From a virus (taxonomy: Duplodnaviria > Heunggongvirae > Uroviricota > Caudoviricetes): a stretch of DNA of 26,649 bases. Position numbers and translations under genes: made by a program. This document shows, one piece after another, positions 1-26,649 of this stretch; position 1 is the first letter of the stretch; each line of letters begins with the position of its first letter. The stretch spans positions 1 to 26,649 of the IMG/VR virus record IMGVR_UViG_2778261572_000013, one strand, 5' to 3'. A model generated the notes under the pieces. That model was given only the letters and a program-made list of their open reading frames with translations. It ran no database searches and was not told where the DNA came from.

Positions 1-17
1 TAGATAAGTTTTAGATA

Positions 18-43
18 ACAAAAAACCCATTTATGTAAACGGG
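18..43 (-). terminator. Putative rho-independent terminator downstream of int
   Basis: On the minus strand, hairpin CCCGUUUA-ca-UAAAUGGG (one G-U wobble) followed by U6 (plus-strand A-tract 18-25), immediately 3' of the int stop. Confidence 0.45.
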
Positions 44-9986: not shown

Positions 9987-10078
9987 TTACGCGGGTTAAC
10001 AATTCGTGCTCTTAATAATACCAGGCATATCAGGCTGATGAACGTAAAAAAACGTTTTACATCAGTAAGATTATTATA

Positions 10079-10098
10079 TACTGTAAATATAAACAGTG
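10079..10098. promoter_or_regulatory. LexA (SOS) box
   Basis: taCTGTaaatataaACAGtg matches the CTGT-N8-ACAG consensus, with promoter-like hexamers just upstream, about 45 bp before the 10140 ORF. Confidence 0.7.
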
Positions 10099-10139
10099 GT
10101 TATATATACAGTATTGCTTGTGGTGTCATAGGAGGAAAG

Positions 10140-10328
10140 ATGCAGGACTATTTTTTGGAGTCTTTGAAGCTCCAGCGCATTGATTTTTTTCTTAAGCTTG
10201 TAGCGGCTAGTGAGTGTAGTGATGAAGAGAAGGGGCTGGCTTTGCAGTGGGTTTCTGAACTGACAGATGAACTCATGGCAAAAATCAGAAGCCACGAATA
10301 CAACCGCTCAATGGATGTCATCAGCTGA
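10140..10328 (+). CDS. Small SOS-controlled protein, possible Tum-like antirepressor N-terminal module
   Basis: 62-aa ORF with strong RBS (AGGAGG) directly downstream of the LexA box; position matches the LexA-controlled tum locus of phage 186 after gene A. Confidence 0.45.
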   Translation: MQDYFLESLKLQRIDFFLKLVAASECSDEEKGLALQWVSELTDELMAKIRSHEYNRSMDVIS

Positions 10329-10338
10329 GGGGACTTTT

Positions 10339-10572
10339 ATGCGCATTGAAATAATGATCGATAAAGAGCAGAAGATTAGCCAGTCTACCCTGGACGCCCT
10401 TGAATCCGAGCTTTACCGCAATCTGCGCCCCCTGTATCCCAAAACGGTAATTCGTATCCGTAAAGGTAGCTCTAACGGTGTGGAACTGACCGGACTGCAA
10501 CTGGACGAAGAAAGGAAGCAAGTGATGAAAATTATGCAGAAGGTGTGGGAAGACGACAGCTGGCTGCATTAA
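10339..10572 (+). CDS. DinI-family protein
   Basis: 77 aa starting MRIEIMIDKEQ, ending WEDDSWLH; resembles DinI (MRIEVTIAK ... WESADDWF). RBS GAGGGGA. Confidence 0.75.
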   Translation: MRIEIMIDKEQKISQSTLDALESELYRNLRPLYPKTVIRIRKGSSNGVELTGLQLDEERKQVMKIMQKVWEDDSWLH

Positions 10573-10842
10573 GAAACGTTGCTGGCGTCTGAACTTGCTT
10601 CTGGCGTCAGCAAGGTTGAACAACGAGCTGTGCGAGGCGTTAGTGTCAATTTGTTACCTTAACCACGATATATGCTAGGAAATTAACAGTTCTTAAGAAA
10701 CCGCTTGCATGATCGAGCGCATTGAACTTAAGTTTAAGTAACGAAATCAACAGATGATATTGTTGTCTAAATTTTAAAGATAATCTGTTGAGGTTGTAGG
10801 CGTCGGAGTGTAGACTTCCGCGCCATGTAAAAAGGGGGAGTT

Positions 10843-11058
10843 ATGTCAAGCATCGCCGCATTTAGCCTGGGTAACCCAGTTGAACGTCTGGCAAGGGTTC
10901 TTAAAGAGAACCAGGACAAACTCAATCTTAGTAAAGATGGTTTTGTGTCCGTAGACTTGTCTAACAAAAGAGCAATGGATGCCATCAAGGCACAGATGGA
11001 TAAGCTTGAAGGCATCAAAACGAGCACTGTAAAAGAGAAAACTAATAGAACCAGATAA
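10843..11058 (+). CDS. Hypothetical small soluble protein (cassette 1, gene 1)
   Basis: 71 aa with strong RBS (AAGGGGGAG). AT-rich. Stop overlaps the next start (TAATG). Confidence 0.55.
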   Translation: MSSIAAFSLGNPVERLARVLKENQDKLNLSKDGFVSVDLSNKRAMDAIKAQMDKLEGIKTSTVKEKTNRTR

Positions 11059-11900
11059 TGGCAACATTACTTTTAGCAGTGATTTTGGTTAGTGGTTTTA
11101 TTTATGTAAACCTATCACTTTCAACAAGATACCGATATAAGCGTTCCAACGGCTGGGACGCTTATTTTTTTGTGGCTGCCTGGGGTATCGTTTTTTTTCT
11201 CCTTGGCGGTTTTTTCACCTTTATTTTGAACGTCAGCGGAGGGTTTCGTTGGCTGGCTAATGCCTTGAATCTAACACCTGACAGTTTTAATGGCATGTTG
11301 TCTTCATCGAAAGACAAACTTCAAAGAATAAATGAAATCAAACAGATAGCATGGGTTATGATTTCAATTGTCCTCGCTGCGATTTCAGGTTTTGGAAATA
11401 AGTTACGCACATCACGTGGAGATCGTCGCTGGGATGCCTTAGCTAAAGCTGTGGGTAATAACGCTTTCGAATCATTACTCATGGAAGCGTCCGCAAGACA
11501 GTTTCCGATCATAGCAACTCTGTCGTCTCGCAAAATCTATGTTGGTCTTGTTACTTGTCCGGCGTTAGAAAACGGGCTTTCAGAGCACCTTGAACTTCTC
11601 CCGATGTTAAGCGGATATCGGGATAAAGATGATCTAACGATTAGTATCACGACTAACTATCACCAACATTATCTTGATAGTGGTGTGATAAGTGGAATGT
11701 CTCGGCTTAATATCGAAGATTTCCGTGTGCTCATACCAAAAGATGAGGTTGAAACAATTTCGTTTTTTGATACTGAGACATATAACAAATTTAAAGAAAA
11801 TGAAGCCAGGGATAGAAAGAGCTGTCGAAAGATTGGTAGTAAAAGTGCATCTTCGCACAGCAAGCGTGCAGCAGATACTGAGTCAAATGATCGTGCATGA
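11058..11900 (+). CDS. Hypothetical membrane protein (cassette 1, gene 2)
   Basis: 280 aa; three hydrophobic segments in the first about 115 residues, then a hydrophilic domain of about 165 aa. Translationally coupled to the 71-aa gene. Confidence 0.55.
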   Translation: MATLLLAVILVSGFIYVNLSLSTRYRYKRSNGWDAYFFVAAWGIVFFLLGGFFTFILNVSGGFRWLANALNLTPDSFNGMLSSSKDKLQRINEIKQIAWVMISIVLAAISGFGNKLRTSRGDRRWDALAKAVGNNAFESLLMEASARQFPIIATLSSRKIYVGLVTCPALENGLSEHLELLPMLSGYRDKDDLTISITTNYHQHYLDSGVISGMSRLNIEDFRVLIPKDEVETISFFDTETYNKFKENEARDRKSCRKIGSKSASSHSKRAADTESNDRA

Positions 11901-11948
11901 CTATGCTGCATGAGATCGCATGATCGTTTGAGGATCGTTTTTGCTAAG

Positions 11949-11972
11949 GCCCGCCAGAACTGGCGGGCTTTT
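11949..11972 (+). terminator. Rho-independent terminator after cassette 1
   Basis: GCCCGCCAG-aa-CTGGCGGGC perfect 9-bp stem followed by TTTT. Confidence 0.7.
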
Positions 11973-12231
11973 GCATAGATCATGCACCTGCATGAAAACT
12001 ACTACATAAAGCGGGCAGGCGTGGCGGGGATACGAGCGCGCGCTGTCGGTATTTTCAAAATTTAAGTAAGATAGTAAATGCAAAATGTGTATCACTCTAT
12101 CGGGTACAGAAAAACCATTCAGAAACTATAATTGAACAGTAACAAACGTGATGATGTTCACTTTTTTAAATTTTTTATATAAACTGATGGGTACTATGAC
12201 AGTAATATGCCAGCTTGCGTGAGAATGAATT

Positions 12232-12696
12232 GTGGAAAAAGAGCTAAATCAAAATCAGATCAGTGAAGTGCAGATTAATGTCTGCCACAAAATCTATGAA
12301 TTTTTTAAGTCTTTAGATGGAGCATCCGATTTCAAAATCGAAACTGAAACCAGTGGCGATGATGGCGATCTAAGTTTTTCTTTTGAGCAATCAAAGACTA
12401 TTTTTAAAGTGGAAGTGCTTTCTACAGAATACTTTAAATTAATTAGAATTATAAATGCATTTGACTTTACCGCAACAAAGTCTATTGAGGAAATGAATTT
12501 ATTAGGCAGGGCAAATCAATTTAATGCATATGCAGTGGGCATTAAGGCTCTGGTTCATACTAAAAAAGTAGGTTATGTTGATTTCTGCGTAGATATATTA
12601 TCTTCTAAAGGTGACGTTAATTCTAGCGATCTTAATTTATCCTTGGTCTTACTAAGAAGTGCGCCAATGAATTTTCTGGCAGTAACTAAGGACTAG
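12232..12696 (+). CDS. Hypothetical acidic soluble protein (cassette 2, gene 1)
   Basis: 154-aa ORF from a GTG start, AT-rich, no recognised motif; followed 10 bp later by the next gene. Confidence 0.45.
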   Translation: MEKELNQNQISEVQINVCHKIYEFFKSLDGASDFKIETETSGDDGDLSFSFEQSKTIFKVEVLSTEYFKLIRIINAFDFTATKSIEEMNLLGRANQFNAYAVGIKALVHTKKVGYVDFCVDILSSKGDVNSSDLNLSLVLLRSAPMNFLAVTKD

Positions 12697-12706
12697 TGAG
12701 GACAAT

Positions 12707-13480
12707 ATGCCAACAAAGCCTAGTTTAGATGAAAATTCAACGTTAAACTTGAAGGCGCAATCTTATTTAAAAGCTGTCTCGGTAGATGCCTCAAATGATT
12801 CTACCCACAATGGATGGAATGCTGATGTAATTATTTTTTTTGTTTTCATTGTTGTTGTAATGGCTCTGACACTATCAAAATGGCTTCAGAATAAAATAGA
12901 TGAATTTATTTCAAAAAAATATTTTAGATGGGTTTTTTCTGGGGTAATTCTTCCAGCGATATCGTTAGGCTTAGCAAGCTACACAACAGCATCAAATCAA
13001 AAATTTGTATACATTGCTACAATTATAGTAAGTCTTGTGATTGGTGAGCGAGCTTCTGCACTGACAGCTGAGAAATCCGAACAACAACTTGAGGCTGAGA
13101 CAGGAAAATTAACTAGCAAAATAAGTGTGCTAGAAGCTGCACATACTAAGGCTTTGGAAAAGAAAGATGCTGAACTTGCAGCTAAAGGTAATGAAATTAG
13201 AGCTGTATCTGATGAGCTTACTAAAAGAGTTGATGAGTTACGTCAGAATTATTTGCGAAGATTGTACGAAATAGCTACAGATCATCAAGAGGCTGATTGT
13301 GTTGTCATTAAATTGAGAGTAAAAGAGGTGGCTCAAGATATTATGGCAACAAGTGGGCTTCTTTTAACTATGGATAGTATTGATTATCAGGTGAGAAATA
13401 ACCAAGTTCCGTTGCCACAGGAAAGTTCAATTGTTTATGAATATGCTATGAAGAATGCTAAAGCTCGAAATCAGCAATGA
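12707..13480 (+). CDS. Hypothetical membrane protein with coiled-coil domain (cassette 2, gene 2)
   Basis: 257 aa with RBS GTGAGGA; three hydrophobic segments (about residues 41-113), then a heptad-like charged region (EKSEQQLEAETGKLTSKISVLEAAHTKALEKKDAELAAKGNEIRAVSDELTKRVDELRQ). Confidence 0.55.
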   Translation: MPTKPSLDENSTLNLKAQSYLKAVSVDASNDSTHNGWNADVIIFFVFIVVVMALTLSKWLQNKIDEFISKKYFRWVFSGVILPAISLGLASYTTASNQKFVYIATIIVSLVIGERASALTAEKSEQQLEAETGKLTSKISVLEAAHTKALEKKDAELAAKGNEIRAVSDELTKRVDELRQNYLRRLYEIATDHQEADCVVIKLRVKEVAQDIMATSGLLLTMDSIDYQVRNNQVPLPQESSIVYEYAMKNAKARNQQ

Positions 13481-13484
13481 TTTT

Positions 13485-13516
13485 AAAGCCAAGTCAGTGT
13501 TAACTGACTTGGCTTT
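13485..13516. terminator. Bidirectional hairpin terminator between cassette 2 and portal gene
   Basis: Perfect 14-bp inverted repeat AAAGCCAAGTCAGT-gtta-ACTGACTTGGCTTT flanked by T/A runs, between convergent genes. Confidence 0.7.
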
Positions 13517-13518
13517 AA

Positions 13519-14547
13519 TTACAGTTTATATTCAGAGAAATTTATAATGCGCTCACCCAACCAATAATTAATCTCTGCAATCCGCATTTGCAGGGCTACT
13601 AGCTCATTTCGCACAAAAACATTTGCCGCCTTCTCTACATCCCCAAACCCTCCAACATTATTAGGCATTATCCCCATCATTTGCGGCGGTACGCGGTGCG
13701 CCGCCATCATGTCGTCCCGGCTCACGTTCTTGATATTCAGAAACTCATCCTTCGCCGCGACTTCTGACAGAGGAATGATCTGAAGCCCATCCTTTTTGCC
13801 GTTAGGCGAGTACATAAACAGGTTGCGGAAGTTACCCGGTCCTTTGGCGCTTTTCATTGCGTTGCGGAGGTTGTTCACATCCTCCTGGTTTTGCGCGGCA
13901 TCGGTCATGTACATGATGAAGCCTGCATGACTGCCGTTAATGTAATACTTCCGGCGGAACAGCGTGGCGGACTCGTTGAGCAGAGCGGATGGAATAGCAG
14001 AAAGATAGCCAGGCAGGCCGTAGATCTCCTGATTAATATCCGGTTCCATCAGATGAAAGATGCTGCCTTTCGTGAACTGATACGGCTGGGTTGCCATACC
14101 GTATTGCACAAACCAGTAGGTATCCAGGTCTAATCCGCGTCGAGTGTATTTTGCCAGGGCAGGTTCAAGGGCGATAACTTCACCGAAGCGGTTCGTGCGT
14201 TTCTCCAGGTAGGCATTACCAAATACCAGATAGTCCTGCACAAAACGTGAAAAAGCCTGCTGGCTGAGCAACGGGTGAGGGATATAGGTGCTGGTCAGAA
14301 TGTTGCACTTTACTGCAATCGGTGAGCTGTGGTGTACGGCGGCGCGGAAGGTTCGCGCCAGGCCGTCGAAACTCACTGGTGGCTCATACCAACGGTCCAT
14401 CTGTACGCATTCCACATAGTCCAGCAGTTCGCGGCGGTCCAGAACAGGAACGGGATCACCGAAGCTGAATGCTTCGGCTGAAGTCTGGTTTTTATGCTGG
14501 ATCTGTTTCGTCGCCGCAGCGCGGTTCTTCTTACTCTTTCCCATCAA
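13519..14547 (-). CDS. Q: Portal vertex protein (P2 gpQ-like)
   Basis: 342 aa (P2 Q is about 344 aa), leftward, adjacent to the terminase remnant, in the P2 cos-Q-P arrangement. Confidence 0.8.
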   Translation of the reverse strand: MMGKSKKNRAAATKQIQHKNQTSAEAFSFGDPVPVLDRRELLDYVECVQMDRWYEPPVSFDGLARTFRAAVHHSSPIAVKCNILTSTYIPHPLLSQQAFSRFVQDYLVFGNAYLEKRTNRFGEVIALEPALAKYTRRGLDLDTYWFVQYGMATQPYQFTKGSIFHLMEPDINQEIYGLPGYLSAIPSALLNESATLFRRKYYINGSHAGFIMYMTDAAQNQEDVNNLRNAMKSAKGPGNFRNLFMYSPNGKKDGLQIIPLSEVAAKDEFLNIKNVSRDDMMAAHRVPPQMMGIMPNNVGGFGDVEKAANVFVRNELVALQMRIAEINYWLGERIINFSEYKL

Positions 14548-15236
14548 AAAATCTCCACAATATTGCTGGTATTGGCGGACTCGCCCTGCAGTGGTTCGTT
14601 AAACAGTGCGTGCATTGTTGCCCAGGCCAGATCGGCATGGCTGGCTTCTTCGCTGCGGCTGGCTTCATAGGTCGGGCGGTTGCCGCTGGCGGTGGTGGCG
14701 CGACGGATTGCCATGAATGACTGCGCAATGTCGGTGTGCCCGGCGTCAAACTCAAGACGGCGGTGGCTGATAATGTCGTAGGCCTTGAGTACCAGGGCGT
14801 TTTTAACGTTGGGGTTGTAGACAAACTCCCGGACGGCAGGAAAAAACGCTTTCACGTTCTCGTAAACCCCGTGACCAACGCCGGTTGAGTCGATGCCGAT
14901 ATAGGTCACGTTGTACTGTTCGGTCAGTTTTTTGATGGCGTCAGCTTGGGCGCGAAAGTCCATTCCGCGCCACTGGTGACGCTCAAGAATGCGGAACTTA
15001 CCGCCTGGCACGGCTGGCGGTGCCACCACCACGCATCCGGCGCTGTCGCCGTTCTGCGTACCTTTTGCCGGGTCATAACCGATCCACACTTCGCGCCAGC
15101 CAAACGGGCGCAGGGCCAGTGCATGAAAGTCGGTCCAGACTTCCCAGCTGTCGGTACAAATACCGCGCATTGTTTCACTGCCCCCATCACCGCAACCATA
15201 AGGCTCCAGTAAGTTTTTTCTAACGGAGCACGGCTC
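14544..15236 (-). pseudogene. P: Terminase large subunit (gpP) 3' fragment; N-terminal ATPase domain missing
   Basis: Open frame ends where the O gene starts. The segment from about WIGYDPAKG...DSAGCVVVAPP onward resembles a terminase nuclease domain. No Walker A region is present, and the frame's first 47 codons are antisense to the O start. Confidence 0.6.
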
Positions 15237-16070
15237 ATGACAGTGAAAGCAAAGCGTTTTCGCATCGGGGTGGAAGGTGCCACCACCGACGGACGCGAAA
15301 TCCAGCGTGAATGGCTGGAACAGATGGCAGCCAGCTACAACCCGGCGGTGTATACCGCGCTGATTAACCTTGAGCACATCAAGTCTTATCTGCCGGACAG
15401 CACCTTTAACCGCTACGGCAAGGTGACGGCGCTGTTTGCTGAAGAAATCACGGAGGGTCCGCTGGCGGGCAAGATGGCACTGTATGCCGACGTTGAGCCA
15501 ACGGAGTCCCTGGTGGAACTGGTGAAAAAAGGCCAGAAATTATTCACCTCTATGGAAGTCAGCCCGAAGTTTGCTGATACGGGCAAAGCCTACCTGGTCG
15601 GCCTGGCAGCCACTGATGACCCAGCCAGTCTGGGTACGGAAATGCTGACATTCAGCGCCAGCGCAGCCCATAACCCGCTGGCAAACCGCAAGCAGAATCC
15701 CGCCAATCTCTTTACCGCCGCAGAGGAAACGGTGATCGAACTGGAAGAAATCCAGGATGACAAACCGTCCCTGTTTGCCCGTGTCACGGCGCTGTTTACA
15801 AAAAAAGAGCAGTCCGACGATGCCCGGTTTTCTGATGTGCATAAGGCCGTGGAACTGGTCGCCACTGAGCAGCAAAACCTGAGTGTGCGCACCGAAAAAT
15901 CCCTTTCTGAGCAGGAAGAACGTCTGTCTGAGCTGGAGACAGTTCTGCAGGCACAACAGGCCGCCTTTAACGAACTGGTGGACAAGCTGAGCCATGAAGA
16001 CAGCCGCCAGGACTACCGCCAGCGTGCAACGGGCGGTAACGCCCCCGCTGACACTCTGACCAATTGCTGA
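15237..16070 (+). CDS. O: Capsid scaffolding protein (P2 gpO-like)
   Basis: 277 aa (P2 O is about 284 aa), first gene of the rightward head operon, GGAG RBS. Confidence 0.8.
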   Translation: MTVKAKRFRIGVEGATTDGREIQREWLEQMAASYNPAVYTALINLEHIKSYLPDSTFNRYGKVTALFAEEITEGPLAGKMALYADVEPTESLVELVKKGQKLFTSMEVSPKFADTGKAYLVGLAATDDPASLGTEMLTFSASAAHNPLANRKQNPANLFTAAEETVIELEEIQDDKPSLFARVTALFTKKEQSDDARFSDVHKAVELVATEQQNLSVRTEKSLSEQEERLSELETVLQAQQAAFNELVDKLSHEDSRQDYRQRATGGNAPADTLTNC

Positions 16071-16086
16071 TGGAGCACAAAACCTG

Positions 16087-17145
16087 ATGAAGAAGAATAC
16101 CCGCTTTGCTTTTAACGCTTACCTGCAGCAGCTGGCGCGTCTGAACGGTGTGGCAGTTGAAGAACTGTCCAGCAAGTTCACCGTGGAGCCGTCTGTACAG
16201 CAGACGCTGGAAGACCAGATCCAGCAGTCCGCCGCTTTCCTGACGCTGATTAACGTCACGCCAGTGACTGAGCAGTCCGGTCAGCTGCTGGGGCTGGGTG
16301 TTGGCAGCACCATTGCCGGAACCACTGACACCACCGCGAAAGAGCGTGAACCTGTCGATCCGACGCTGATGGTCGATGTGGAATACAAATGCGAACAGAC
16401 CAACTTTGACACAGTGCTGACCTACGCGAAGCTGGACCTGTGGGCGAAGTTTCAGGATTTCCAGGTGCGTATCCGTAACGCCATTGTGAAACGTCAGGCA
16501 CTGGACCGCATCATGATCGGCTTTAACGGCGTGAAGCGTGCGAAAACCTCCAACCGCAGCGAAAACCCGCTGCTGCAGGATGTGAACAAAGGCTGGTTGC
16601 AGAAAATCCGTGAGGATGCACCGGATCACGTCATGGGCACCACCACCACGGGCGGTGAAACCACACCGGGTGCGGTGAAAGTCGGGAAAGGTGGCGAATA
16701 TGCCAACCTGGACGCCGTAGTGATGGATGCCGTCAATGAGCTTATCGACGTGGTCTACCAGGACGATGATGATCTGGTGGTGATTTGCGGTCGTGAACTG
16801 CTGTCTGACAAGTACTTCCCGCTGGTCAATAAAGAGCAGGAAAACAGTGAAAAACTGGCTGCCGATATGATCATCAGTCAGAAACGCATGGGTGGCCTGC
16901 AGGCCGTGCGTGCGCCGTTCTTCCCGCCGAATGCGCTGCTGATCACCCGTCTGGATAACCTGTCCATCTACTGGCAGGAAGATACCCGCCGCCGTTCAGT
17001 TATCGACAACCCGAAACGTGACCGGATTGAAAATTTTGAATCCGTTAACGAAGCCTATGTGGTTGAGGACTATCGCTGCGCTGCACTGGTGGAAAACATC
17101 CAGATTGGTGACTTCAGCGCCGCCGCAGCAGAAACCGGAGCGTAA
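16087..17145 (+). CDS. N: Major capsid protein (P2 gpN-like)
   Basis: 352 aa, follows O; size and order as P2 N. Confidence 0.8.
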   Translation: MKKNTRFAFNAYLQQLARLNGVAVEELSSKFTVEPSVQQTLEDQIQQSAAFLTLINVTPVTEQSGQLLGLGVGSTIAGTTDTTAKEREPVDPTLMVDVEYKCEQTNFDTVLTYAKLDLWAKFQDFQVRIRNAIVKRQALDRIMIGFNGVKRAKTSNRSENPLLQDVNKGWLQKIREDAPDHVMGTTTTGGETTPGAVKVGKGGEYANLDAVVMDAVNELIDVVYQDDDDLVVICGRELLSDKYFPLVNKEQENSEKLAADMIISQKRMGGLQAVRAPFFPPNALLITRLDNLSIYWQEDTRRRSVIDNPKRDRIENFESVNEAYVVEDYRCAALVENIQIGDFSAAAAETGA

Positions 17146-17148
17146 TTC

Positions 17149-17799
17149 ATGAGCCTGAGTCCCGCACGGCAGCATCGCCTGCGCGTTCAGGCTGAACAGG
17201 CCGCTCGCGAGGGTGGCAGTGTTCGCCACGCGTCGGGCTATGACCTGATGCTGCTGCAACTGGCGGAAGACCGCCGCCGTCTCAAGGGCGTTCAGTCCAC
17301 GGTCAAAAAAGCGGAAATCAAGGTGGAGCTGCTGCCGAAATATGCCGCCTGGGCGGAGGGCGTTCTGGCTGCCGGAGGCGCTCAACAGGATGACGTGCTG
17401 ATGTACGTGATGCTGTGGCGCATTGATGCCGGAGATTATGCCGGGGCGCTGGAGATCGGGCGTCATGCCCTGCGTCATGGCTGGGTGATACCGCTGGGTA
17501 ACCGCAACGTGCAGACCGTGCTGGCAGAGGAAATGGCAGACGCGGCGCAGAGCGCAATGCTTGCCGCCACCGGCTTTGATGCCGATCTGTTGCTGCAGAC
17601 GCTGGAGCTGACAGACGGTCTGGATATGCCGGACCAGTCACGGGCGCGTCTGCATAAAGCGATTGGCGCTGTCCTGAGTGAAAGCAATCCGGCGTCTGCC
17701 CTTAATCATCTCAACCATGCGTTACAGCTCGATCCCCGCTGTGGCGTGAAAAAAGACAAACAGCAGCTGGAGCGCAGACTGCGCAATGACAGCCGCTGA
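17149..17799 (+). CDS. M: Terminase endonuclease/small subunit (P2 gpM-like)
   Basis: 216 aa, follows N; order as in P2. Confidence 0.7.
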   Translation: MSLSPARQHRLRVQAEQAAREGGSVRHASGYDLMLLQLAEDRRRLKGVQSTVKKAEIKVELLPKYAAWAEGVLAAGGAQQDDVLMYVMLWRIDAGDYAGALEIGRHALRHGWVIPLGNRNVQTVLAEEMADAAQSAMLAATGFDADLLLQTLELTDGLDMPDQSRARLHKAIGAVLSESNPASALNHLNHALQLDPRCGVKKDKQQLERRLRNDSR

Positions 17800-17894
17800 C
17801 AGAACGTGCCCCCGCGCACGGGCGGCACGGGGTGGCGAAAGGCATAGCCACATCAAAATCCCGTTCACCGCCCTCTATTTCAGGAGAAAGCAGC

Positions 17895-18125
17895 ATGAAG
17901 TTTGTTGCGCCAGAACAGGCACCGGAACAGGCGGAAATCATCAGAAATACGCCGTTCTGGCCTGATGTGGACCTGTCGGAGTTTCGCAGCGTGATGCGCA
18001 CTGACGGCACGGTGACGCAGCCGCGTTTAAAGCAGGTTGCCCTGTCTGGACCGACGGCATTGGTAATACGTCGGGCGTCATTCCCGGCAAAACCATTACG
18101 GAGCGACAGGCAGCAGAAGGGCTGA
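17895..18125 (+). CDS. L: Head completion protein gpL-like, probably 3'-truncated
   Basis: ATG 17895 with AGGAGAAAG RBS; only 76 codons (P2 L is about 169 aa); frame is lost where lysozyme-like sequence begins in another frame. Confidence 0.4.
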   Translation: MKFVAPEQAPEQAEIIRNTPFWPDVDLSEFRSVMRTDGTVTQPRLKQVALSGPTALVIRRASFPAKPLRSDRQQKG

Positions 18126-18397
18126 TCTCCAACGTGCTGCGTGTGGAGCGGGCGCTGGAAAGGTGTGTGAAGCAACAGCCGCCGCAGAAGGTGTATGACG
18201 CTGCGGTGTCGTTTGCCTTCAACGTGGGTACGGGCAATGCCTGCAGTTCCACGCTGGTGAAATTGCTCAATCAGCGGCGCTGGGCGGATGCGTGCCGACA
18301 GTTGCCGCGCTGGGTGTATGTAAAAGGTGTGTTTAATCAGGGGCTGGATAACCGCCGTGCACGGGAGATGGCCTGGTGCTTACAGGGAGCAAACTGA
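18005..18397 (+). pseudogene. K: Phage lysozyme (gpK-like, GH24 family) lacking the N-terminal catalytic region
   Basis: Frame-2 open stretch encodes CPVWTDGIGNTSG...GKTITERQAAEGL...SFAFNVGTGN...RRW..., matching the middle and C-terminus of lambda/P21-type lysozymes; no in-frame N-terminus with the catalytic Glu upstream. Confidence 0.55.
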
Positions 18398-18398
18398 A

Positions 18399-18836
18399 AT
18401 GAAAAAGAAAGTAATCAGCGGACTGTTTCTGATGTTATGGATGGCGCTGTTAATCGCAGCAATGGTGTATCCGCAGGGGATTTTTCCGGTACTGGCAGCG
18501 TCCGGTGTCTGGGTAGCCTGTCTGCTGACATGGGGGGCAATTCCGGTAGCACTGGTTGCGTTAATTAAGAACGGCCCGCTCTGGCAGGAGTTGAGGGCAT
18601 CTTTGCTGAAGAGCATTACCCGAAAAGAAAACGTATTTATCAGCTGGATGATGCGATTGCTGATTGTCGTAAGTCTCGCCTGGACGGGGTGGGCTATTAC
18701 CCTGGTCTTTTATCTGCTGACCGTTATCGCCACCATTTTTCACTGGCCGCCATCCGTTACTGACGTTATGCCGCTGACCGAAGTGCTGGAATGGCGGTAT
18801 AAAGCGATTCAGAGAAGCGGGGACAACGATGAGTGA
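18399..18836 (+). CDS. Small membrane protein, LysA-like candidate
   Basis: 145 aa with four hydrophobic segments, RBS AGGGAG, immediately after the lysozyme remnant as P2 lysA follows K. Its stop overlaps the T start. Confidence 0.4.
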   Translation: MKKKVISGLFLMLWMALLIAAMVYPQGIFPVLAASGVWVACLLTWGAIPVALVALIKNGPLWQELRASLLKSITRKENVFISWMMRLLIVVSLAWTGWAITLVFYLLTVIATIFHWPPSVTDVMPLTEVLEWRYKAIQRSGDNDE

Positions 18837-21800
18837 TAACAACCTGCGGCTGCAGGTCATTCTTAATGCGGTTGACAAACTCACCCGCCCATTCCGTGCT
18901 GCACAGGCCAGTTCGAAAGAGCTGGCTGGCGCAATCAGAAACTCCCGTGACGCATTAAAGCAACTCAATCAGGCGGGTAACAGCCTGGAAAAATTTCGCA
19001 AGCTGCAGGCCGATAACAAGAAGTTAGGCGACAGGCTGAACTATGCCAGACAGAAGGCTAATTTACTTAGCTCTGAGCTGGAGTCGATGGAACAACCATC
19101 ACAACGGCACCTTGTGGCTTTAGGTCGGCAAACGCTGGCAGTCCAACGCCTGGAAGAACAACAAAAATATTTGCAGAAGCAAACGGCGCTTGTGCGTGCA
19201 GAACTGTACCGGGCGGGAATTTCTGCGAAAGATGATGCGGGAGCAACTGCCCGTTTAGCCCGTGAAACATCACGTTATAACCAGGAATTGTCGCAACAGG
19301 AGGCGAGGCTGAAGCGACTGGGGGAAGCTCAGCGCAGGATGAATGCAGCGCGTGCCAGTTATGCCCGTTCGCTGGAGGTGCGTGATCGTATTGCAGGTGT
19401 TGGAGCCACCACCACGGCTGCAGGGCTGGCAATGGGCGCACCAGTGATGGCGGCAGTAAAAAGCTATACCAGCATGGAAGATGCTATGAAAGGTGTGGCA
19501 AAGCAGGTCAATGGTCTGCGTGACGATAATGGCAACCGCACTGCACGTTTTTATGAAATGCAGGATGCCATCAAGGCTGCCAGCGAACAGTTGCCGATGG
19601 AAAACGGTGCGGTGGACTTCGCTGCACTGGTTGAAGGTGGTGCGCGCATGAACGTCGCAAACCCTGACGACAGCTGGGAAGACCAGAAACGTGATCTGCT
19701 GGCCTTCGCCAGCACGGCAGCAAAGGCGGCAACAGCCTTTGAGCTGCCAGCGGATGAACTGTCAGAAAGTCTGGGTAAAATCGCCCAGCTCTACAAAATC
19801 CCTACCCGCAATATTGAACAGCTCGGTGATGCGCTGAACTATCTGGATGATAACGCCATGTCGAAAGGGGCAGACATCATTGATGTCATGCAACGCCTGG
19901 GCGGTGTGGCTGATCGTCTGGATTATCGTAAAGCGGCGGCGCTGGGTTCCACCTTCCTGACACTGGGTGCTGCGCCGGAGGTTGCAGCCAGTGCAGCAAA
20001 CGCGATGGTGCGTGAATTGTCCATTGCCACCATGCAAAGCAAGAGTTTCTTTGAAGGAATGAATCTGCTGAAACTCAATCCTGAAGTGATTGAAAAGCAG
20101 ATGACGAAGGATGCGATGGGAACCATCCAGCGCGTGCTGGAGAAGGTGAACGCACTGCCACAGGACAAGCGTCTGTCTGCCATGACCATGTTGTTTGGTA
20201 AAGAGTTTGGTGATGACGCGGCGAAACTGGCAAACAACCTTCCGGAACTGCAGCGCCAGCTAAAACTGACAGCGGGCAATGATGCGCTCGGTTCCATGCA
20301 GAAAGAATCCGACATCAACAAAGACTCACTTTCTGCTCAGTGGTTGCTGGTCAAAACCGGAGCGCAGAACACCTTCAGCAGCCTGGGCGAAACGCTGCGC
20401 CAGCCGCTGATGGATATTCTGTACACGGTGAAAAGCATCACGGGGGCGTTGCGCCGCTGGGTGGAAGCTAACCCGGAACTGACAGGCACACTGGTGAAAG
20501 TAGCGGCTGTTGTGGCTGCGGTTACCGTTGGCCTCGGCACCTTAGCGGTGGCGCTGGCTGCAGTGCTGGGGCCGCTGGCAGTGATTCGTCTGGGATTCTC
20601 TGTGCTGGGTATCAAAACGTTACCTTCCGTTACGGCAGCAGTAACCCGAACCAGCAGCGCGTTGTCCTGGCTGGCTGGCGCACCACTGGCACTGCTGCGA
20701 CGCGGGCTTGCTTCATCGGGCAACGCCGCAGGTTTACTTACTGCGCCGTTGTCGTCTTTGCGCCGCACGGCATTACTGACGGGAAATGTCCTGAAAACTG
20801 TAGCAGGTGCGCCGGTTGCACTTTTGCGGTCTGGATTATCCGGTTTACGTGCTGTTGCTGTGATGTTTATGAATCCTCTGGCGGTACTGCGCGGTGGACT
20901 GGCCGCCGCAGGCACGGTGCTGCGAGTACTGGCATCTGGTCCACTGGCGATGCTGCGCGTTGCCCTGTATGCCGTATCTGGTCTGTTAGGTGCTCTGCTC
21001 AGTCCGATAGGTCTTGTGGTTACTGCACTGGCGGGCGTGGCGCTGGTTGTCTGGAAATACTGGCAACCCATCACCGCATTTCTTGGTGGCGTGGTGGAAG
21101 GATTCAAAGCGGCGGCAGGTCCCGTCAGTGAAGCATTCGAACCGCTTAAGCCCGTGTTCCAGTGGATTGGCGACAAAGTACAGGCGCTGTGGGGCTGGTT
21201 TACTGATCTGCTGACGCCCGTTAAGTCGACCTCTGCCGAACTGCAGAGTGCAGCGGCAATGGGGCGACGATTCGGGGAGGCACTGGCGGAAGGGCTAAAT
21301 ATGGTCATGCATCCGCTGGACTCCCTGAAATCCGGCGTTTCCTGGTTGCTGGAGAAGCTCGGCATTGTCAGTAAAGAGGCCGCAAAGGCAAAACTGCCGG
21401 AAAGCGTGACGCGTCAGCAACCTGCGACGGTGAATGCAGACGGTAAAGTGATGATGCCATCGGGTGGTTTTCCATCATGGGGATATGGCTTTGCGGGGAT
21501 GTATGACAGCGGCGGGTATATCCCGCGCGGGCAGTTTGGCATCGTCGGTGAAAACGGGCCGGAAATTGTTAACGGCCCGGCAAATGTGACCAGCCGGAGA
21601 AATACAGCTGCACTGGCTGCCGTTGTTACCGGAATGATGGGCGTTGCTGCCGCGCCTGCAGAGCTTCCACCGTTGCACCCTTTGGCACTTCCCGCGAAAG
21701 GTGGAGAAGCAATTGTGAGTCGCGCAGCCACTGTGCCGCCCGTTTACAGGATTGAGGCACCGACGCAGATCATCATCCAGACGCAGCCAGGACAAAGTGC

Positions 21801-21906
21801 GCAGGATATTGCGCGGGAGGTGGCCCGCCAGCTTGATGAACGTGAACGCAGGCTGAAGGCAAAGGCCAGGAGTAACTACAGCGATCAGGGGGGATACGAC
21901 GCATGA
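18829..21906 (+). CDS. T: Tail tape measure protein (P2 gpT-like)
   Basis: 1025 aa; N-terminal coiled-coil region, central Gly/Ala-rich hydrophobic repeats (xPLAxLRxGL units); followed by U and D as in P2. Confidence 0.8.
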   Translation: MSDNNLRLQVILNAVDKLTRPFRAAQASSKELAGAIRNSRDALKQLNQAGNSLEKFRKLQADNKKLGDRLNYARQKANLLSSELESMEQPSQRHLVALGRQTLAVQRLEEQQKYLQKQTALVRAELYRAGISAKDDAGATARLARETSRYNQELSQQEARLKRLGEAQRRMNAARASYARSLEVRDRIAGVGATTTAAGLAMGAPVMAAVKSYTSMEDAMKGVAKQVNGLRDDNGNRTARFYEMQDAIKAASEQLPMENGAVDFAALVEGGARMNVANPDDSWEDQKRDLLAFASTAAKAATAFELPADELSESLGKIAQLYKIPTRNIEQLGDALNYLDDNAMSKGADIIDVMQRLGGVADRLDYRKAAALGSTFLTLGAAPEVAASAANAMVRELSIATMQSKSFFEGMNLLKLNPEVIEKQMTKDAMGTIQRVLEKVNALPQDKRLSAMTMLFGKEFGDDAAKLANNLPELQRQLKLTAGNDALGSMQKESDINKDSLSAQWLLVKTGAQNTFSSLGETLRQPLMDILYTVKSITGALRRWVEANPELTGTLVKVAAVVAAVTVGLGTLAVALAAVLGPLAVIRLGFSVLGIKTLPSVTAAVTRTSSALSWLAGAPLALLRRGLASSGNAAGLLTAPLSSLRRTALLTGNVLKTVAGAPVALLRSGLSGLRAVAVMFMNPLAVLRGGLAAAGTVLRVLASGPLAMLRVALYAVSGLLGALLSPIGLVVTALAGVALVVWKYWQPITAFLGGVVEGFKAAAGPVSEAFEPLKPVFQWIGDKVQALWGWFTDLLTPVKSTSAELQSAAAMGRRFGEALAEGLNMVMHPLDSLKSGVSWLLEKLGIVSKEAAKAKLPESVTRQQPATVNADGKVMMPSGGFPSWGYGFAGMYDSGGYIPRGQFGIVGENGPEIVNGPANVTSRRNTAALAAVVTGMMGVAAAPAELPPLHPLALPAKGGEAIVSRAATVPPVYRIEAPTQIIIQTQPGQSAQDIAREVARQLDERERRLKAKARSNYSDQGGYDA

Positions 21907-22388
21907 TGATGGTGCTGGGATTGTACGTGTTTATGCTGCGCACCGTGCCGTATCAGGAACTGCAGTATCAGCGCAGCTGGCGACATGCGGCTAACAGCCG
22001 GGTAAATCGTCGTCCGTCCACGCAGTTTCTGGGACCGGACAACGACATGCTGACGCTTTCCGGTGTTCTTATGCCGGAGATAACAGGCGGCAGGCTGTCG
22101 TTGCTGGCACTGGAGCAGATGGCAGAACAGGGGAAAGCATGGCCTCTGATTGAAGGCAGCGGCACGATTTACGGCATGTATGTGATTGAGGGACTGAATC
22201 AGACTAAAACGGAGTTTTTCCGCGACGGTATGCCGCGCCGGATTGAGTTCACCCTGTCGCTCAAACGGGTGGATGAATCCCTGTCCGATATGTTCGGTGA
22301 TCTCAGTGCGCAGCTGAATAATCTGCAGGGAGCGGCAACATCAGCCTTAAGCGATATCAGTAAAACGGTGGGAGGGCTTCTGTCGTGA
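21903..22388 (+). CDS. U: Tail protein gpU-like
   Basis: 161 aa (P2 U is about 159 aa), overlaps the T stop, precedes D. Confidence 0.75.
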   Translation: MMMVLGLYVFMLRTVPYQELQYQRSWRHAANSRVNRRPSTQFLGPDNDMLTLSGVLMPEITGGRLSLLALEQMAEQGKAWPLIEGSGTIYGMYVIEGLNQTKTEFFRDGMPRRIEFTLSLKRVDESLSDMFGDLSAQLNNLQGAATSALSDISKTVGGLLS

Positions 22389-23485
22389 ATTTCAGCTCTG
22401 AACTGCTTAACAAAGGCAACAAAACTCCGGCATTCAGCATCAGTATTGAAGGCAGGGATATCACCACTGTGCCGGACAACCGCCTGATGGGGCTGACGCT
22501 GACGGATAACCGGGGATTTGAAGCGGACCAGCTTGATCTGGAGCTGGACGACGCCGATGGAAAAATCGTGCTGCCGCGCCGTGGTGCGGTCATTACGCTG
22601 GCGCTGGGCTGGAAGGGGCAGCCGCTTTTCCCGAAAGGGGCATTCACGGTGGACGAGATTGAACACACTGGCGCACCGGACCGCCTGACTATCCGGGCGC
22701 GAAGTGCTGATTTTCGGGAAACCCTGAATACCCGCCGTGAAAAATCTTGGCACAAGACCACCGTCGGGGAAGTGGTAAAGGAAATAGCCGCGCGTCACAA
22801 GCTGAAGATGGCGCTGGGTAAAGACCTGTCGGATAAGCCCGTGGAACATATAGACCAGACTAATGAGAGTGACGGCAGTTTTCTGATGCGGCTGGCGCGA
22901 CAGTACGGTGCCATCGCGTCGGTGAAAAATGGCAATCTGCTATTCATCCGGCAGGGGCAGGGCAAAAGCGCCACTGGTAAACCACTGCCAGTGATCACTA
23001 TCACACGCAAGGACGGCGACAGTCACCGCTTTACCCTGGCAGATCGCGGAGCCTACACGGGCGTAATTGCCAGCTGGTTGCATACCCGCGAACCTGCGAA
23101 GAAAGAAAGCACCACGGTGAAGCGTAAGCGCAGAACTAAGAAGCAGAAGAAAGAGCCAGAAGCGAAGCAGGGCGATTACCTGGTGGGTACGGATGAAAAC
23201 GTGCTGGTACTTAATCGCACTTATGCCAACCGGAGCAACGCCGAACGAGCGGCGAAAATGCAGTGGGAACGCCTGCAACGCGGCGTTGCGTCATTCTCGC
23301 TACAACTGGCAGAAGGGCGGGCAGATCTCTACACGGAAATGCCAGTGAAAGTCAGTGGCTTTAAACAGCCGATAGATGATGCGGAATGGACCATTACGAC
23401 TCTGACGCATACCGTCAGCCCGGATAACGGTTTTACGACCAGTCTGGAGCTTGAAGTGAGGATTGATGATTTCGAAATGGAATGA
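22385..23485 (+). CDS. D: Tail protein / late control gene D-like
   Basis: 366 aa (P2 D is about 387 aa), position between U and ogr. Confidence 0.75.
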   Translation: MNFSSELLNKGNKTPAFSISIEGRDITTVPDNRLMGLTLTDNRGFEADQLDLELDDADGKIVLPRRGAVITLALGWKGQPLFPKGAFTVDEIEHTGAPDRLTIRARSADFRETLNTRREKSWHKTTVGEVVKEIAARHKLKMALGKDLSDKPVEHIDQTNESDGSFLMRLARQYGAIASVKNGNLLFIRQGQGKSATGKPLPVITITRKDGDSHRFTLADRGAYTGVIASWLHTREPAKKESTTVKRKRRTKKQKKEPEAKQGDYLVGTDENVLVLNRTYANRSNAERAAKMQWERLQRGVASFSLQLAEGRADLYTEMPVKVSGFKQPIDDAEWTITTLTHTVSPDNGFTTSLELEVRIDDFEME

Positions 23486-23575
23486 TTCTTCGCAATGGAG
23501 AACTTTTAAGTTTGCAAAATGGAATAATGCGGTATCATTATTGTGAATTTAGCAAAAATGGGGAGAACTCGAAAA

Positions 23576-23794
23576 ATGATGATTTGCCCACTGTGTGGAA
23601 GTGCCGCCCATACTCGCAGCAGTTTTCAGGTATCTTCATTGACCAAAGAGCGTTACAACCAGTGCCAGAACATTAACTGCAGCCATACTTTTGTTACCCA
23701 TGAAACTTTTGTTCGTTCGATTGCAACGCCAAAAGAGTCAAATCCGGTTCAGCCGCATCCAATGAAATCAGGACAGGTGGCGCTCTCTCTTTGA
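23576..23794 (+). CDS. ogr: Ogr-type zinc-finger late-gene transcription activator
   Basis: MMICPLCGSAAHTRSS...KERYNQCQNINCSHTF... closely parallels P2 Ogr (MFHCPLCQHAAH...KERYHQCQNVNCSATF); last prophage gene before attR, as in P2. Confidence 0.9.
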   Translation: MMICPLCGSAAHTRSSFQVSSLTKERYNQCQNINCSHTFVTHETFVRSIATPKESNPVQPHPMKSGQVALSL

Positions 23795-23816
23795 CGCTGC
23801 CGCCATTTTGTCGCCA
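23795..23816. repeat. 22-bp repeat CGCTGCCGCCA(T)TTTGTCGCCA, also present at 123-144 (one mismatch)
   Basis: Direct repeat read at both prophage ends: the left copy inside the int 3' end, the right copy immediately after the ogr stop. Candidate arm-type Int site or alternative att core. Confidence 0.5.
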
Positions 23817-23870
23817 TCGTTAAAAAACAGTGTTTCTAACATCATGATTTTAAACAGCTTAAATTTCAGG

Positions 23871-23917
23871 CAACAAAAAACCCATCAACCTTGAACCGAA
23901 ATGGCGGGGTTGATGGG
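23871..23917 (-). terminator. Rho-independent terminator of ybjL, containing the putative attR core
   Basis: Perfect 10-bp stem CCCATCAACC/GGTTGATGGG followed on the minus strand by U-tract; the 14-mer AACAAAAAACCCAT (23872-23885) is identical to 17-30 at the left end. Confidence 0.6.
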
Positions 23918-24029
23918 CTCCACAAAATGGGGACATCAAAGAAAAGCAGTGGCACTAATTAAGACTGATGCCCTGCGGAAAAGTTCTGCGGTTGTGCAAA
24001 AAAATTTCATTTTCAGGGCAACTTCAGTT

Positions 24030-25715
24030 TTATCCTAATCCTGGCCATACCATGACGATGATTGTCCCTGCCAGCGTCAGCAGGACGTTGGCGATTGCAT
24101 AGGTGCCCGCATAGCCCAGCGCCGGGATGTTACTGCGAGCTGTATCACTGATGATCTCCATTGCCGGCGCGCAGGTACGTGCGCCCATCATTGCGCCGAA
24201 CAACAGTGCGCGGTTCATTCGCAATACATAAGCACCGAACAAGAAACAGATAACCACGGGCACCAGACTGACAATCAATCCGGCAATCAACATCTGACCG
24301 CCAATCGCGCCCAGGCCGTTATTAATACCGCTACCGGCGCTCAGACCAACGCCTGCTATAAACACCATCAAGCCGAACTCTTTCACCATGCTTAATGCAC
24401 CTTGCGGAATGTAACCGAAGGTCGGGTGGTTAGCACGCATAAAGCCCAGCATAATTCCGGCGAATAACAACCCGGCAGCGTTCCCCATGCCGAAACTGAA
24501 TGTGCTGAACTGGAAGGTGATCATCCCGATCATCAGCCCAATAACAAAGAAGGCGCAAAATGCCAGCAGGTCAGTGACCTGGCTGTGAATCGAGATAAAG
24601 CCGATGCGATCGGCGATGGTTTTTACGCGACGGGCATCACCGCTGACTTGTAAAACGTCACCTTTGTTAAGCACGACGTTGTCATCTATCGGCATCTCAA
24701 TCTGGCTACGAATGACGCGGTTAAGGAAGCAACCGTGATCGGTCAACTTCAGTTGTGCGAGACGTTTACCTACAGCGTTATGGTTTTTAACGACCACTTC
24801 TTCAGTGACGATACGCATGTCGAGAAGGTCACGATCGAAAACTTCTTTACCGTTACGGAAGCTGGGATCGAGTCGGGCATGGGCGTCGGGATAGCCTACC
24901 AACGCTATTTCATCGCCCATTTGTAGCACGGCATCACCGTCTGGATTTGCCAGAATCCCGTTACGTCGAATACGTTCAATGTAGCAGCCGGTTTGTCGAT
25001 AAATACCCAGTTCACGCAGATTTTTGCCGTCGGTCCAGGCCACCAGCTCCGGGCCGACGCGATAGGCGCGGATCACCGGTAAATAAACCTTACGGTTGGC
25101 ATCAGTGTCCAGGCCACGTTCGCGGGCGATTTGCTGGGCGCTGGTCTGTAAGTCCTGATGCTGCAATTTCGGCAAGTAACGCGCACCAACAATCAAACTC
25201 ACCAGACCGATTAAATAGGTTAAGGCATACCCGAGGCTCAGATTATCCAGTGCCAGTGAGAGCTGCCTGCTTTCCATGCCGGAATGACGCAGTGTATCGC
25301 CAGCACCGACCAGAACCGGTGTCGACGTCATAGAGCCTGCTAACATACCGGCCGTCAGGCCAATATCCCAGCCAAACAGCTTACCTAACCCTAAGGCGAT
25401 CACCAGCGCACTGCCAACCATCACCAGTGCTAACATTAGGTAATTTTTCCCATCGCGAAAAAAAATGGAAAAAAAGTTCGGTCCGGCTTCGACCCCGACG
25501 CAGAAAATAAACAGCATAAAGCCAAGATTAAGCGCATCGGTGTTAATGCTGAAATGTTGTTGGCCTAATAACAGCGATACGACTAAAACGCCAATGGAAT
25601 TACCCAGTTGGATCGAACCAAGTCGTAACTTTCCGAGACATAGCCCAAGCGCGAGGACCACAAATAATAACAGAATGTAATTCCCATTTAACAATTCGGC
25701 GACGTTTATATTCAC
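24030..25715 (-). CDS. ybjL: Putative transport protein YbjL (AspT/YidE/YbjL family)
   Basis: 561-aa polytopic membrane protein recognised as E. coli-type YbjL from its sequence ([20 protein letters not shown]...), with TM blocks flanking a central soluble domain. Confidence 0.85.
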
Positions 25716-25984
25716 GGAGGCTAACTTCTTGTTTACTAGTAAGCTGTTGAAAGAAATGGTAATTTACGATAATGTTTTTTACCAGAATTCAGGGCGCAGA
25801 TTCATTCAGCGCACCTAAACGATAGTAAAGTAACAATATATTTTACTAGTGTAATCACATTAGGTATCAACGGCTATATGAATTGCGTTGGCCTATATTA
25901 GCATGGAATGCGAAGCGGCTTTATCTTACTGAACGCCACACTGGCGAAAAATGTGTTCGATAGACGCAGTGTCAGGAGGAACGA

Positions 25985-26362
25985 GTGAAACATAAACAAC
26001 GTTGGGCGGGGGCAATCTGCTGTTTTGTCCTCTTCATTGTGGTGTGCCTTTTTCTGGCGACGCACATGAAAGGCGCTTTTCGGGCTGCCGGGCATCCTGA
26101 AATCGGCTTGCTATTTTTCATTCTTCCTGGAGCAGTGGCCAGCTTCTTTTCACAGCGTAGAGAAGTCCTGAAACCTCTGTTTGGCGCAATGCTGGCGGCA
26201 CCCTGTTCGATGCTCATTATGCGGCTGTTTTTTTCACCGACGCGCTCATTCTGGCAAGAGCTGGCATGGTTACTAAGCGCGGTGTTCTGGTGTGCGCTGG
26301 GGGCACTGTGTTTCTTATTTATCAGTAGTTTGTTTAAACCACAGCACAGAAAAAATCAGTAA
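25985..26362 (+). CDS. ybjM: Inner membrane protein YbjM
   Basis: 125-aa hydrophobic protein, GTG start, located between ybjL and grxA as in E. coli. Confidence 0.7.
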   Translation: MKHKQRWAGAICCFVLFIVVCLFLATHMKGAFRAAGHPEIGLLFFILPGAVASFFSQRREVLKPLFGAMLAAPCSMLIMRLFFSPTRSFWQELAWLLSAVFWCALGALCFLFISSLFKPQHRKNQ

Positions 26363-26383
26363 AGCCCTCAACGCGAGGGCTTG
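26361..26383. terminator. Bidirectional terminator between ybjM and grxA
   Basis: AGCCCTC-aacgc-GAGGGCT hairpin between convergent genes. Confidence 0.6.
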
Positions 26384-26391
26384 TCAGACGA

Positions 26392-26649
26392 TCAGGCGTC
26401 CAGATTTTCTTTCACCCATGCAGCAAAATCGGTATAGCCGCCGATATGTTGCTGATCGACAAAAATCTGCGGCACGGTTTCTACGGGTTTACCTGCCTTT
26501 TGTTGTAGATCTTCTTTAGTGATCCCTTCCGCACGAATATCTACATACTGATACTGAAAATCATCGCGTTCATTGCTCAATTTCTCAGCCAGATCTTTTG
26601 CACGCACACAGTAAGGGCAACCCGAACGACCAAAAATAACGGTTTGCAT
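26392..26649 (-). CDS. grxA: Glutaredoxin 1
   Basis: 85 aa with CPYC active site (MQTVIFGRSGCPYCVRAKDLAEKL...), matching E. coli Grx1. Confidence 0.92.
   Translation of the reverse strand: MQTVIFGRSGCPYCVRAKDLAEKLSNERDDFQYQYVDIRAEGITKEDLQQKAGKPVETVPQIFVDQQHIGGYTDFAAWVKENLDA

Follow-up and report, generated by a model that had tools for sequence, protein, structure and literature searches.

The window, the stretch of 26,649 nucleotides analyzed here, is an Escherichia coli chromosome segment in which a P2-like prophage (window ~17 to 23985) occupies an integration site between rcdA and ybjL. Positions 23900 to 26649 match the ybjL-ybjM-grxA region in numerous E. coli chromosomes with 100% identity, and positions 8399 to 26649 show 100% identity with NLMV01000024.1, a contig from the draft assembly GCA_002229415.1. 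The P2-type traits of the element are clear: Q and P are oriented leftward and O, N, M, and L rightward, the replication nickase gpA is present, and T, U, D, and ogr lie at the right end beside att. tblastn searches gave matches of 92 to 100% identity with the proteins of Klebsiella phage 4LV2017 and of 32 to 54% identity with P2 T, U, D, and ogr. Among the intact phages of the phage collection, 4LV2017 (NC_047818; 33,540 bp; Peduoviridae, Elveevirus), which carries a full annotated P2-type gene set, is the nearest; two intact prophages of this family, present in E. coli strains CV839-06 and KE47, were used for comparison as well.

Aligned with 4LV2017 by blastn, the window falls into collinear blocks of 96 to 97% DNA identity with three breaks. 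It has the same gene order as 4LV2017, CV839-06, and KE47, namely, int, CII, Dam, A, Q, P (C terminus), O, N, M, L (N terminus), endolysin (C terminus), and LysA, followed at the right by E' (C terminus), T, U, D, ogr, and att. Compared with 4LV2017, the window is without 1216, 877, and 8057 bp, here termed D1, D2, and D3, and what is missing is the ATPase half of the terminase, the interval from the C-terminal part of L through X and the holin to the N terminus of the endolysin, and everything from the C terminus of LysA through E. Intact in the element are int, both att cores, the CI-type repressor gene, CII, Dam, A, Q, O, N, M, T, U, D, and ogr, and the products of T, U, D, ogr, O, N, M, Q, and A are full length with 92 to 100% amino acid identity to those of 4LV2017. 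The features that bear on the three breaks are collected in Table 1.

Table 1. Features of the P2-like element in the window (positions refer to the 26,649-nucleotide window)
Feature	Position	Strand	Description
att core (other)	17-30		AACAAAAAACCCAT
Terminase large-subunit gene P, remnant	14544..15170	-	Only C-terminal nuclease domain, aa 365-572; tblastn; Pfam Terminase_6C only
D1 junction	15149..15152	.	Joins 4LV2017 14557 to 15770; 1216 bp missing; microhomology TGTC
Truncated head-completion gene L'	17895-18125	+	76 aa; Pfam Phage_GPL profile positions 1-36 of 139 only
D2 junction	18043..18046	.	Joins 4LV2017 18667 to 19541; 877 bp missing, out of frame; microhomology TGTC
Endolysin C-terminal fragment	18134-18397	+	87 aa, frame differs from L'; Pfam Phage_lysozyme positions 50-125 of 125 only
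Chimeric ORF LysA(1-110)::E'(5-39)	18399..18836	+	ATG, 145 codons plus stop; blastp, Pfam
LysA-derived part of chimeric ORF	18399..18727	+	P2 lysA-type membrane protein; 96-97% DNA identity to 4LV2017 19897-20226 and CV839-06
D3 junction	18712..18731	.	20-bp stretch in which the parental sites match at 14 of 20 positions
E'-derived part of chimeric ORF	18728..18836	+	Last 36 codons including native stop overlapping T start; 96.8% identity to 4LV2017 from 28283 on
Tape measure gene T	18829..21906	+	Intact, 1025 aa; 98% identical to 4LV2017 T
Tail gene U	21903-22388	+	Intact; 99.4% identity, full length
Tail gene D	22385-23485	+	Intact; 97.3% identity, full length
ogr/delta-type late activator gene	23558..23794	+	Intact; tblastn
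attR core	23867-23885		

The ORF immediately upstream of T had been described in a first-pass annotation as encoding a 145-amino-acid (aa) membrane protein and overlapping the start of T by 8 bp, and it had been attributed either to a deletion that joined two genes very neatly or to a chimeric ORF with a 3' end taken from E'. The overlap (ATGAGTGA) and the membrane character, with two hydrophobic blocks at approximately aa 3 to 57 and 78 to 116 (Kyte-Doolittle), are as described, and both explanations turned out to be true of one and the same event, as blastp, tblastn, and Pfam recognize a LysA part and an E' part. Residues 1 to 111 are 93.7% identical to the 125-aa LysA-like proteins of 4LV2017 (gp21) and CV839-06, and residues 110 to 145 are 97.2% identical to residues 4 to 39 of E' from the same two elements (blastp and tblastn); tblastn places E' residues 4 to 39 at window positions 18726 to 18833. 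In the protein, LysA ends with ...FYLLTVIA and is followed by E' from residue 5 onward (TIFHWPPSVTDVMPLTEVLEWRYKAIQRSGDNDE). The Pfam profile Phage_P2_GpE (PF06528) matches aa 110 to 142 over profile positions 4 to 36 of 37 (55.7 bits, cut-off 23; E = 3.3e-15), and the precomputed annotation of the identical database protein lists PF28015 (LysA) together with PF06528 (GpE).

The NCBI entry for the hybrid, WP_274537030.1, is named "DNZ54_00345 family protein." Members of this LysA family are multipass membrane proteins of ~125 aa encoded between the endolysin gene and lysB. The first 110 aa of the hybrid are 93.7% identical to family members, and there is the precomputed PF28015 match; the 15 aa that would form the native C terminus have been exchanged, and there is no lysB. 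The ordinary family name would suit a longer natural allele of lysA, located at a position where tail genes were never present. We regard such an allele as extremely unlikely, because intact members are 125 aa long and end with ...TVIAFW(I/M)..., whereas the ORF in the window diverges right after ...TVIA and runs on into E' sequence (TIFHWPPSVTDVMPLTEVLEWRYKAIQRSG.NDE), for which Pfam gives a significant GpE match, and because every intact relative has the genes from LysB through E between lysA and T.

An alignment of the ORF with P2 LysA and E/E' had been proposed in the first-pass annotation, and it supports the same two parts. The N-terminal part is a distant homologue of P2 LysA (NC_001895), with a weak but significant match (26% identity; E = 9e-5), and the C-terminal 40 aa match the C terminus of P2 E+E' with 52% identity (E = 1e-12). 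In P2, lysA and E' are separate genes 11.9 kb apart that belong to different operons (O and F), and E' is expressed only via a -1 frameshift from E. The distance from lysA to T in P2, earlier given as about 10 kb, is in fact 11.9 kb (lysA ends at 7934 and T starts at 19850), and that in 4LV2017 is 8.1 kb. The P2 record describes lysA as a nonessential gene that influences the timing of lysis and E+E' as an essential tail protein produced by the -1 frameshift from E. Unlike in P2, the reading frame of E' in the window continues straight on from that of LysA, and E has been lost along with the slippery site. No homologue of the upstream gpE (Phage_TAC_7), from which the -1 frameshift would lead into E', was found in the window, and the sequence upstream of the E' part is that of LysA. 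As E, the slippery site, and the remaining tail genes are gone, the E' peptide is left without its partner, and we infer that the hybrid ORF is in all likelihood a by-product without a function. The 8-bp overlap itself is native to the E'/T gene pair, with the same 8 bp found in 4LV2017 (28384 to 28391) and P2 (19850 to 19857), and the neat appearance of the ORF/T overlap is thus inherited from this arrangement. A "neatly" overlapping gene pair can therefore come from a different upstream partner, and WP_274537030.1, filed as an ordinary LysA-family ("DNZ54_00345") protein, should be reannotated as a LysA::E' fusion made by deletion.

In comparison with the three intact relatives, the collinear DNA identity of 96 to 98% is broken at the D3 junction and picks up again downstream, after 8.06 kb in 4LV2017 and 8.62 kb in CV839-06. 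In terms of 4LV2017, D3 joins position 20229 to position 28267 with 8057 bp missing. In terms of CV839-06, in which the same three breakpoints are obtained, D3 measures 8.62 kb, the size differing because the tail-fiber genes differ; the size of D3 and its exact microhomology are thus values inferred from stand-in relatives and not from the actual parent prophage. The deletion takes the C terminus of LysA, LysB/LysC, R, S, V, W, J, I, H, G, FI, FII, E, and the first codons of E'. In a three-way alignment, the parental sequences are ...CTGACCGTTATTGCCTTCTGG on the lysA side and ...GTGGCAGATATCGCCACCATT on the E' side, and the window reads ...CTGACCGTTATCGCCACCATT. The crossover lies within TAT (18725 to 18727), after which C18728 is the E' allele and is followed by GCC. 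The exact microhomology comprises 3 bp (TAT), or 6 of 7 bp when the flanking GCC is included (TAT[T/C]GCC), inside the imperfect repeat of 14 matches in 20. A longer exact microhomology, with TATCGCC also present in the parental lysA, was considered and rejected; KE47, which gave the best match among the 750 E. coli genomes with matches, has T at that one base, and none of the 750 contains a perfect match to a reconstructed parental lysA 3' end with C. As the best intact E. coli lysA carries T there, the exact microhomology is taken to be 3 bp and C18728 to come from the E' side.

The other two breaks affect head and lysis genes. D1 removes the N-terminal 364 codons of P, that is, the ATPase half, along with part of the divergent promoter region between P and O. 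D2 removes the C-terminal two-thirds of gpL, X, the holin gene, and ~40 N-terminal codons of the endolysin gene; gpL retains ~50 of its 154 residues (aa 1 to 52) and the endolysin retains aa 35 to 157 (tblastn). The loss had initially been placed in the interval between lysA and T only, and this has to be extended, as X, the holin gene, and the front of the endolysin gene are also gone through the separate, upstream deletion of 877 bp. The tetranucleotide TGTC is common to the D1 and D2 junctions, which is probably a coincidence.

The microhomologies at the three junctions, of 4, 4, and 3 bp, point to short-homology illegitimate recombination as the likely route. When pairs of breakpoints are drawn at random from the 4LV2017 genome, at least 4 bp are shared in 1.8% and at least 3 bp in 5.5% of cases per junction. 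A deletion adjacent to an insertion sequence (IS), or one brought about by a site-specific recombinase, would be the alternative to short-homology slippage. Some relatives (KE47) do harbor a recombinase/invertase module in the interval that is deleted here, and TGTC recurs at D1 and D2. One 4-mer in two junctions is nevertheless weak evidence, the microhomology of D3 is a different one (TAT/GCC), and at none of the joints did we find IS sequences or IS ends, terminal inverted repeats or other repeats, or extra or foreign bases. We therefore consider this alternative to have next to no likelihood.

The tail genes that D3 removed are not present elsewhere in the element. In tblastn searches with the late proteins of 4LV2017 and P2 (threshold E <= 0.01), X, the holin, LysB, LysC, R, S, V, W, J, I, H, G, FI, FII, and E had no match in the 26.6-kb window, the sole exception from the tail module being the last 36 codons of E'. 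The absence of tail tube, sheath, baseplate, and fiber genes between the lysA-like gene and T, as claimed in the first-pass annotation, is therefore confirmed, and the sheath and tube homologues elsewhere in the element that would have spoken against it were searched for and not found. One match of P2 FI at window positions 8322 to 8501 (E = 5e-4; 26% identity) was dismissed as a chance match, as it lies antisense within gene A, whose product is 98% identical to the gpA of the intact phage. The further claim that the Z/fun accessory hotspot was lost with the segment is correct as to the position, but an accessory gene was probably not lost with it, as the interval between G and FI is only 106 to 133 bp and free of cargo in the two nearest relatives. 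Prophage KE47 provides an example of what the interval deleted in the window can hold, with a GmrSD-type restriction endonuclease gene (13584 to 15359) at the S/V hotspot (P2 orf30) and an invertible tail-fiber assembly segment with a recombinase gene (19570 to 21592) at the G/FI (Z/fun) position.

The deletions also remove the sites at which late transcription would be activated. The sequence TGT-N12-ACA is the binding motif of Ogr/Delta-type activators at the late promoters of P2, 186, and P4. In the three intact relatives, such dyads are found upstream of O (two, centered 87.5 and 145.5 bp from the ATG), V (55.5 bp), and FI (83.5 to 85.5 bp). In the window, O, the hybrid ORF, and T are all without a dyad in front of them. 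Of the two dyads of O, one was deleted entirely by D1 and the one nearest to O lost its left half, the cut lying at TGTC, and D3 removes those of V and FI. Ogr can probably no longer activate late transcription in this element. In terms of the P2 operons, T-U-D would be without the F promoter and fused to the tail of the O operon.

Judging from its gene content, the element is a defective derivative of a Peduoviridae (P2-like) prophage and not a functional member of the family, as the complete contractile tail module (R, S, V, W, J, I, H, G, FI, FII, E/E', and X) is missing. We consider it very probable that the locus is the scar of a single deletion of ~8 kb in an Elveevirus-like prophage, which created the LysA::E' hybrid and which is one of three microhomology deletions in the course of a recent decay private to this lineage. 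Short-homology recombination independent of RecA, by replication slippage or microhomology-mediated end joining as suggested by the junction sequence, would have connected the lysA-type gene, at its codon 110, with codon 5 of E', which extends the tail assembly chaperone gene E through a -1 frameshift. The joint happens to be in frame, an outcome with a prior probability of 1 in 3, and gives rise to a 145-aa LysA::E' ORF that keeps the native stop codon and the overlapping start of T. Along with D3, the element would have lost LysB/LysC, the tail completion, baseplate, fiber, sheath, and tube genes, E, the region of the O-operon terminator, and the late promoters P_V and P_F. D1 would have cost it the terminase ATPase domain and the activator dyads of P_P/P_O, and D2 the C-terminal part of gpL, X, the holin, and the N terminus of the endolysin. 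As a consequence, DNA packaging, tail building, and cell lysis would be impossible for the element.

Relatives of the region are common, being present in approximately 1,000 of 5,426 complete E. coli genomes. The D3 junction, in contrast, was found in 0 of the 5,426, and the hybrid protein forms a cluster with only one member at 90% identity among approximately 15 billion proteins. With the junction missing from these genomes and the protein a singleton, the deletion is private to one strain or lineage, and for the same reasons a conserved lineage of elements without tails was rejected. The exact hybrid protein is encoded on two contigs only, one in GCA_002229415.1 and the other in the Logan assembly of SRR3989759. 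The Logan contig contains all three junctions at 100% identity, and the two assemblies may share an isolate or reads.

The source being a draft assembly (NLMV01000024.1, 57.8 kb), and several P2-like prophages being frequent in a single E. coli strain (a median of 2 matching places per genome), the possibility arises that the strain harbors an intact prophage and that a short-read assembler collapsed or misjoined its lysA and E' regions. We judge this to be highly improbable. The parental sites share only 3 exact bases (14 of 20), far below the k-mer of an assembler, which makes a misjoin in the graph implausible. Moreover, a second pipeline (Logan, SRR3989759) gave a sequence that is 100% identical over all three junctions, and three clean junctions in one element, each with microhomology, look biological.

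A comparable remnant of a P2-like prophage is present at rcdA-ybjL in strain EC71 (NZ_CP085622), in which the lysis cassette is also joined straight to T and the right breakpoint also lies within E'. Its T-U-D-ogr region together with the host flank is 97.7% identical to the window. The EC71 remnant differs in that truncated lysB/lysC are joined to E' ~63 bp further in, with a 4-bp microhomology (TGAC), in that its left arm is distinct (the integrase is 75% identical), and in that a second deletion joins CII to N with a 6-bp microhomology (GCGGTA); its junctions lie at 10434 to 10439 and 14064 to 14067. The joint was found in no genome but that of EC71, and the remnant is, by the positions of its breakpoints, an independent event. 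The two right breakpoints within the 120-bp E' ORF could suggest a deletion hotspot in E', but with two cases, and with a query that favors joins of lysis genes to T, this is unsupported.

The EC71 remnant, at the same site and with the same direct connection of lysis genes to T, could also be taken to suggest a functional mobile element without a tail, such as a capsid-forming satellite resembling cf-PICI or a domesticated head/T-U-D module that borrows the tails of a helper. This would agree with the finding that the capsid genes O, N, M, and Q, along with A, int, and both att cores, are intact while the tail genes are missing. A satellite or capsid-forming island would, however, need a working terminase and a head completion protein, whereas only aa 365 to 572 of the terminase large subunit remain, with the whole ATPase half gone, and gpL is cut after ~50 aa. 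In addition, no recognizable late-promoter dyads are left, DNA identity to the intact phage is 96 to 97% up to every breakpoint, and the architecture is seen in no other genome, the EC71 junction being different and unique to its own genome. We thus regard a functional satellite as very unlikely. The losses of the terminase ATPase domain, the C terminus of gpL, X, the holin, the N terminus of the endolysin, and the Ogr-type dyads indicate a dead prophage. An R-type tailocin was rejected because the pattern is the opposite, with head genes present and the sheath, tube, and baseplate genes missing.

The pattern of what was lost and what was spared raises another possibility. What the three deletions hit is precisely the set of functions for host killing and virion formation, with the holin, the endolysin, and the spanins gone along with the tail, the terminase ATPase, and each of the four Ogr-dependent dyads. 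Spared are A, the capsid genes, and T-U-D-ogr, as well as int, Old, the repressor, and the cargo genes. Selection might have favored a disarmed prophage in which a LysA::E'-T-U-D unit is still expressed, or else the E/E'/T boundary might be a hotspot of deletion, as the EC71 breakpoint within E' could also suggest, but we consider either of these highly improbable. Recent decay by three short-homology deletions, which we prefer, is consistent with the state of the retained genes, whose full length and 92 to 100% identity to 4LV2017 leave little time for further decay.

Defective prophages of E. coli that decay by internal deletion have already been described, for example in the prophage pool of O157 (PMC2669165), and "grounded" prophages have been reviewed (PMC6379469). 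These defective or cryptic prophages display the same loss of morphogenesis and lysis functions, while the repressor, the integrase, and accessory defense genes persist (PMC2669165, PMC6379469). Nothing essential distinguishes the element studied here from other defective E. coli prophages, except that it is very young, with its genes intact and its junction private. The literature on microhomology-mediated prophage decay yielded general background only. The element is a case of ordinary prophage decay, a phenomenon that is already known, and it offers nothing new beyond the correction of an annotation. Its importance beyond annotation, where it should be labeled a defective prophage, is small, and it consists in a clean case of very recent inactivation by three short-homology deletions that can serve as a data point for rates of decay and for junction signatures.

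The cargo at the int-CI and A-Q hotspots differs from that of 4LV2017, the window carrying Old and a set of unassigned ORFs and 4LV2017 carrying a retron between A and Q. Between int and the CI repressor gene of the window lies a gene for an Old-family nuclease of 589 aa (1231 to 3000, minus strand) with AAA_15 and OLD-like TOPRIM domains, which PADLOC identifies as Old over its full length (E = 1e-234). At the same position, 4LV2017 has an unrelated hypothetical gene. Four cargo ORFs of 71, 280, 154, and 257 aa (10843 to 13480, plus strand) are located at the hotspot between A/DinI and the portal gene. PADLOC gave no match for these four ORFs, and the sole Pfam match is a marginal one of TetR_C_4 (E = 2e-4) to the 257-aa ORF. 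In the corresponding slot, 4LV2017 harbors a retron (St85-type effector and reverse transcriptase), CV839-06 three hypothetical genes, and KE47 a P-loop NTPase and a RES NAD+ phosphorylase. The four ORFs of the window can be regarded as candidate anti-phage genes. The CI-type repressor (3044 to 3982, minus strand; 312 aa) contains two Phage_CI_repr helix-turn-helix stretches and a CI C-terminal domain, and as it is only 58% identical to the repressor of 4LV2017, the element represents a different immunity type on a near-identical backbone.
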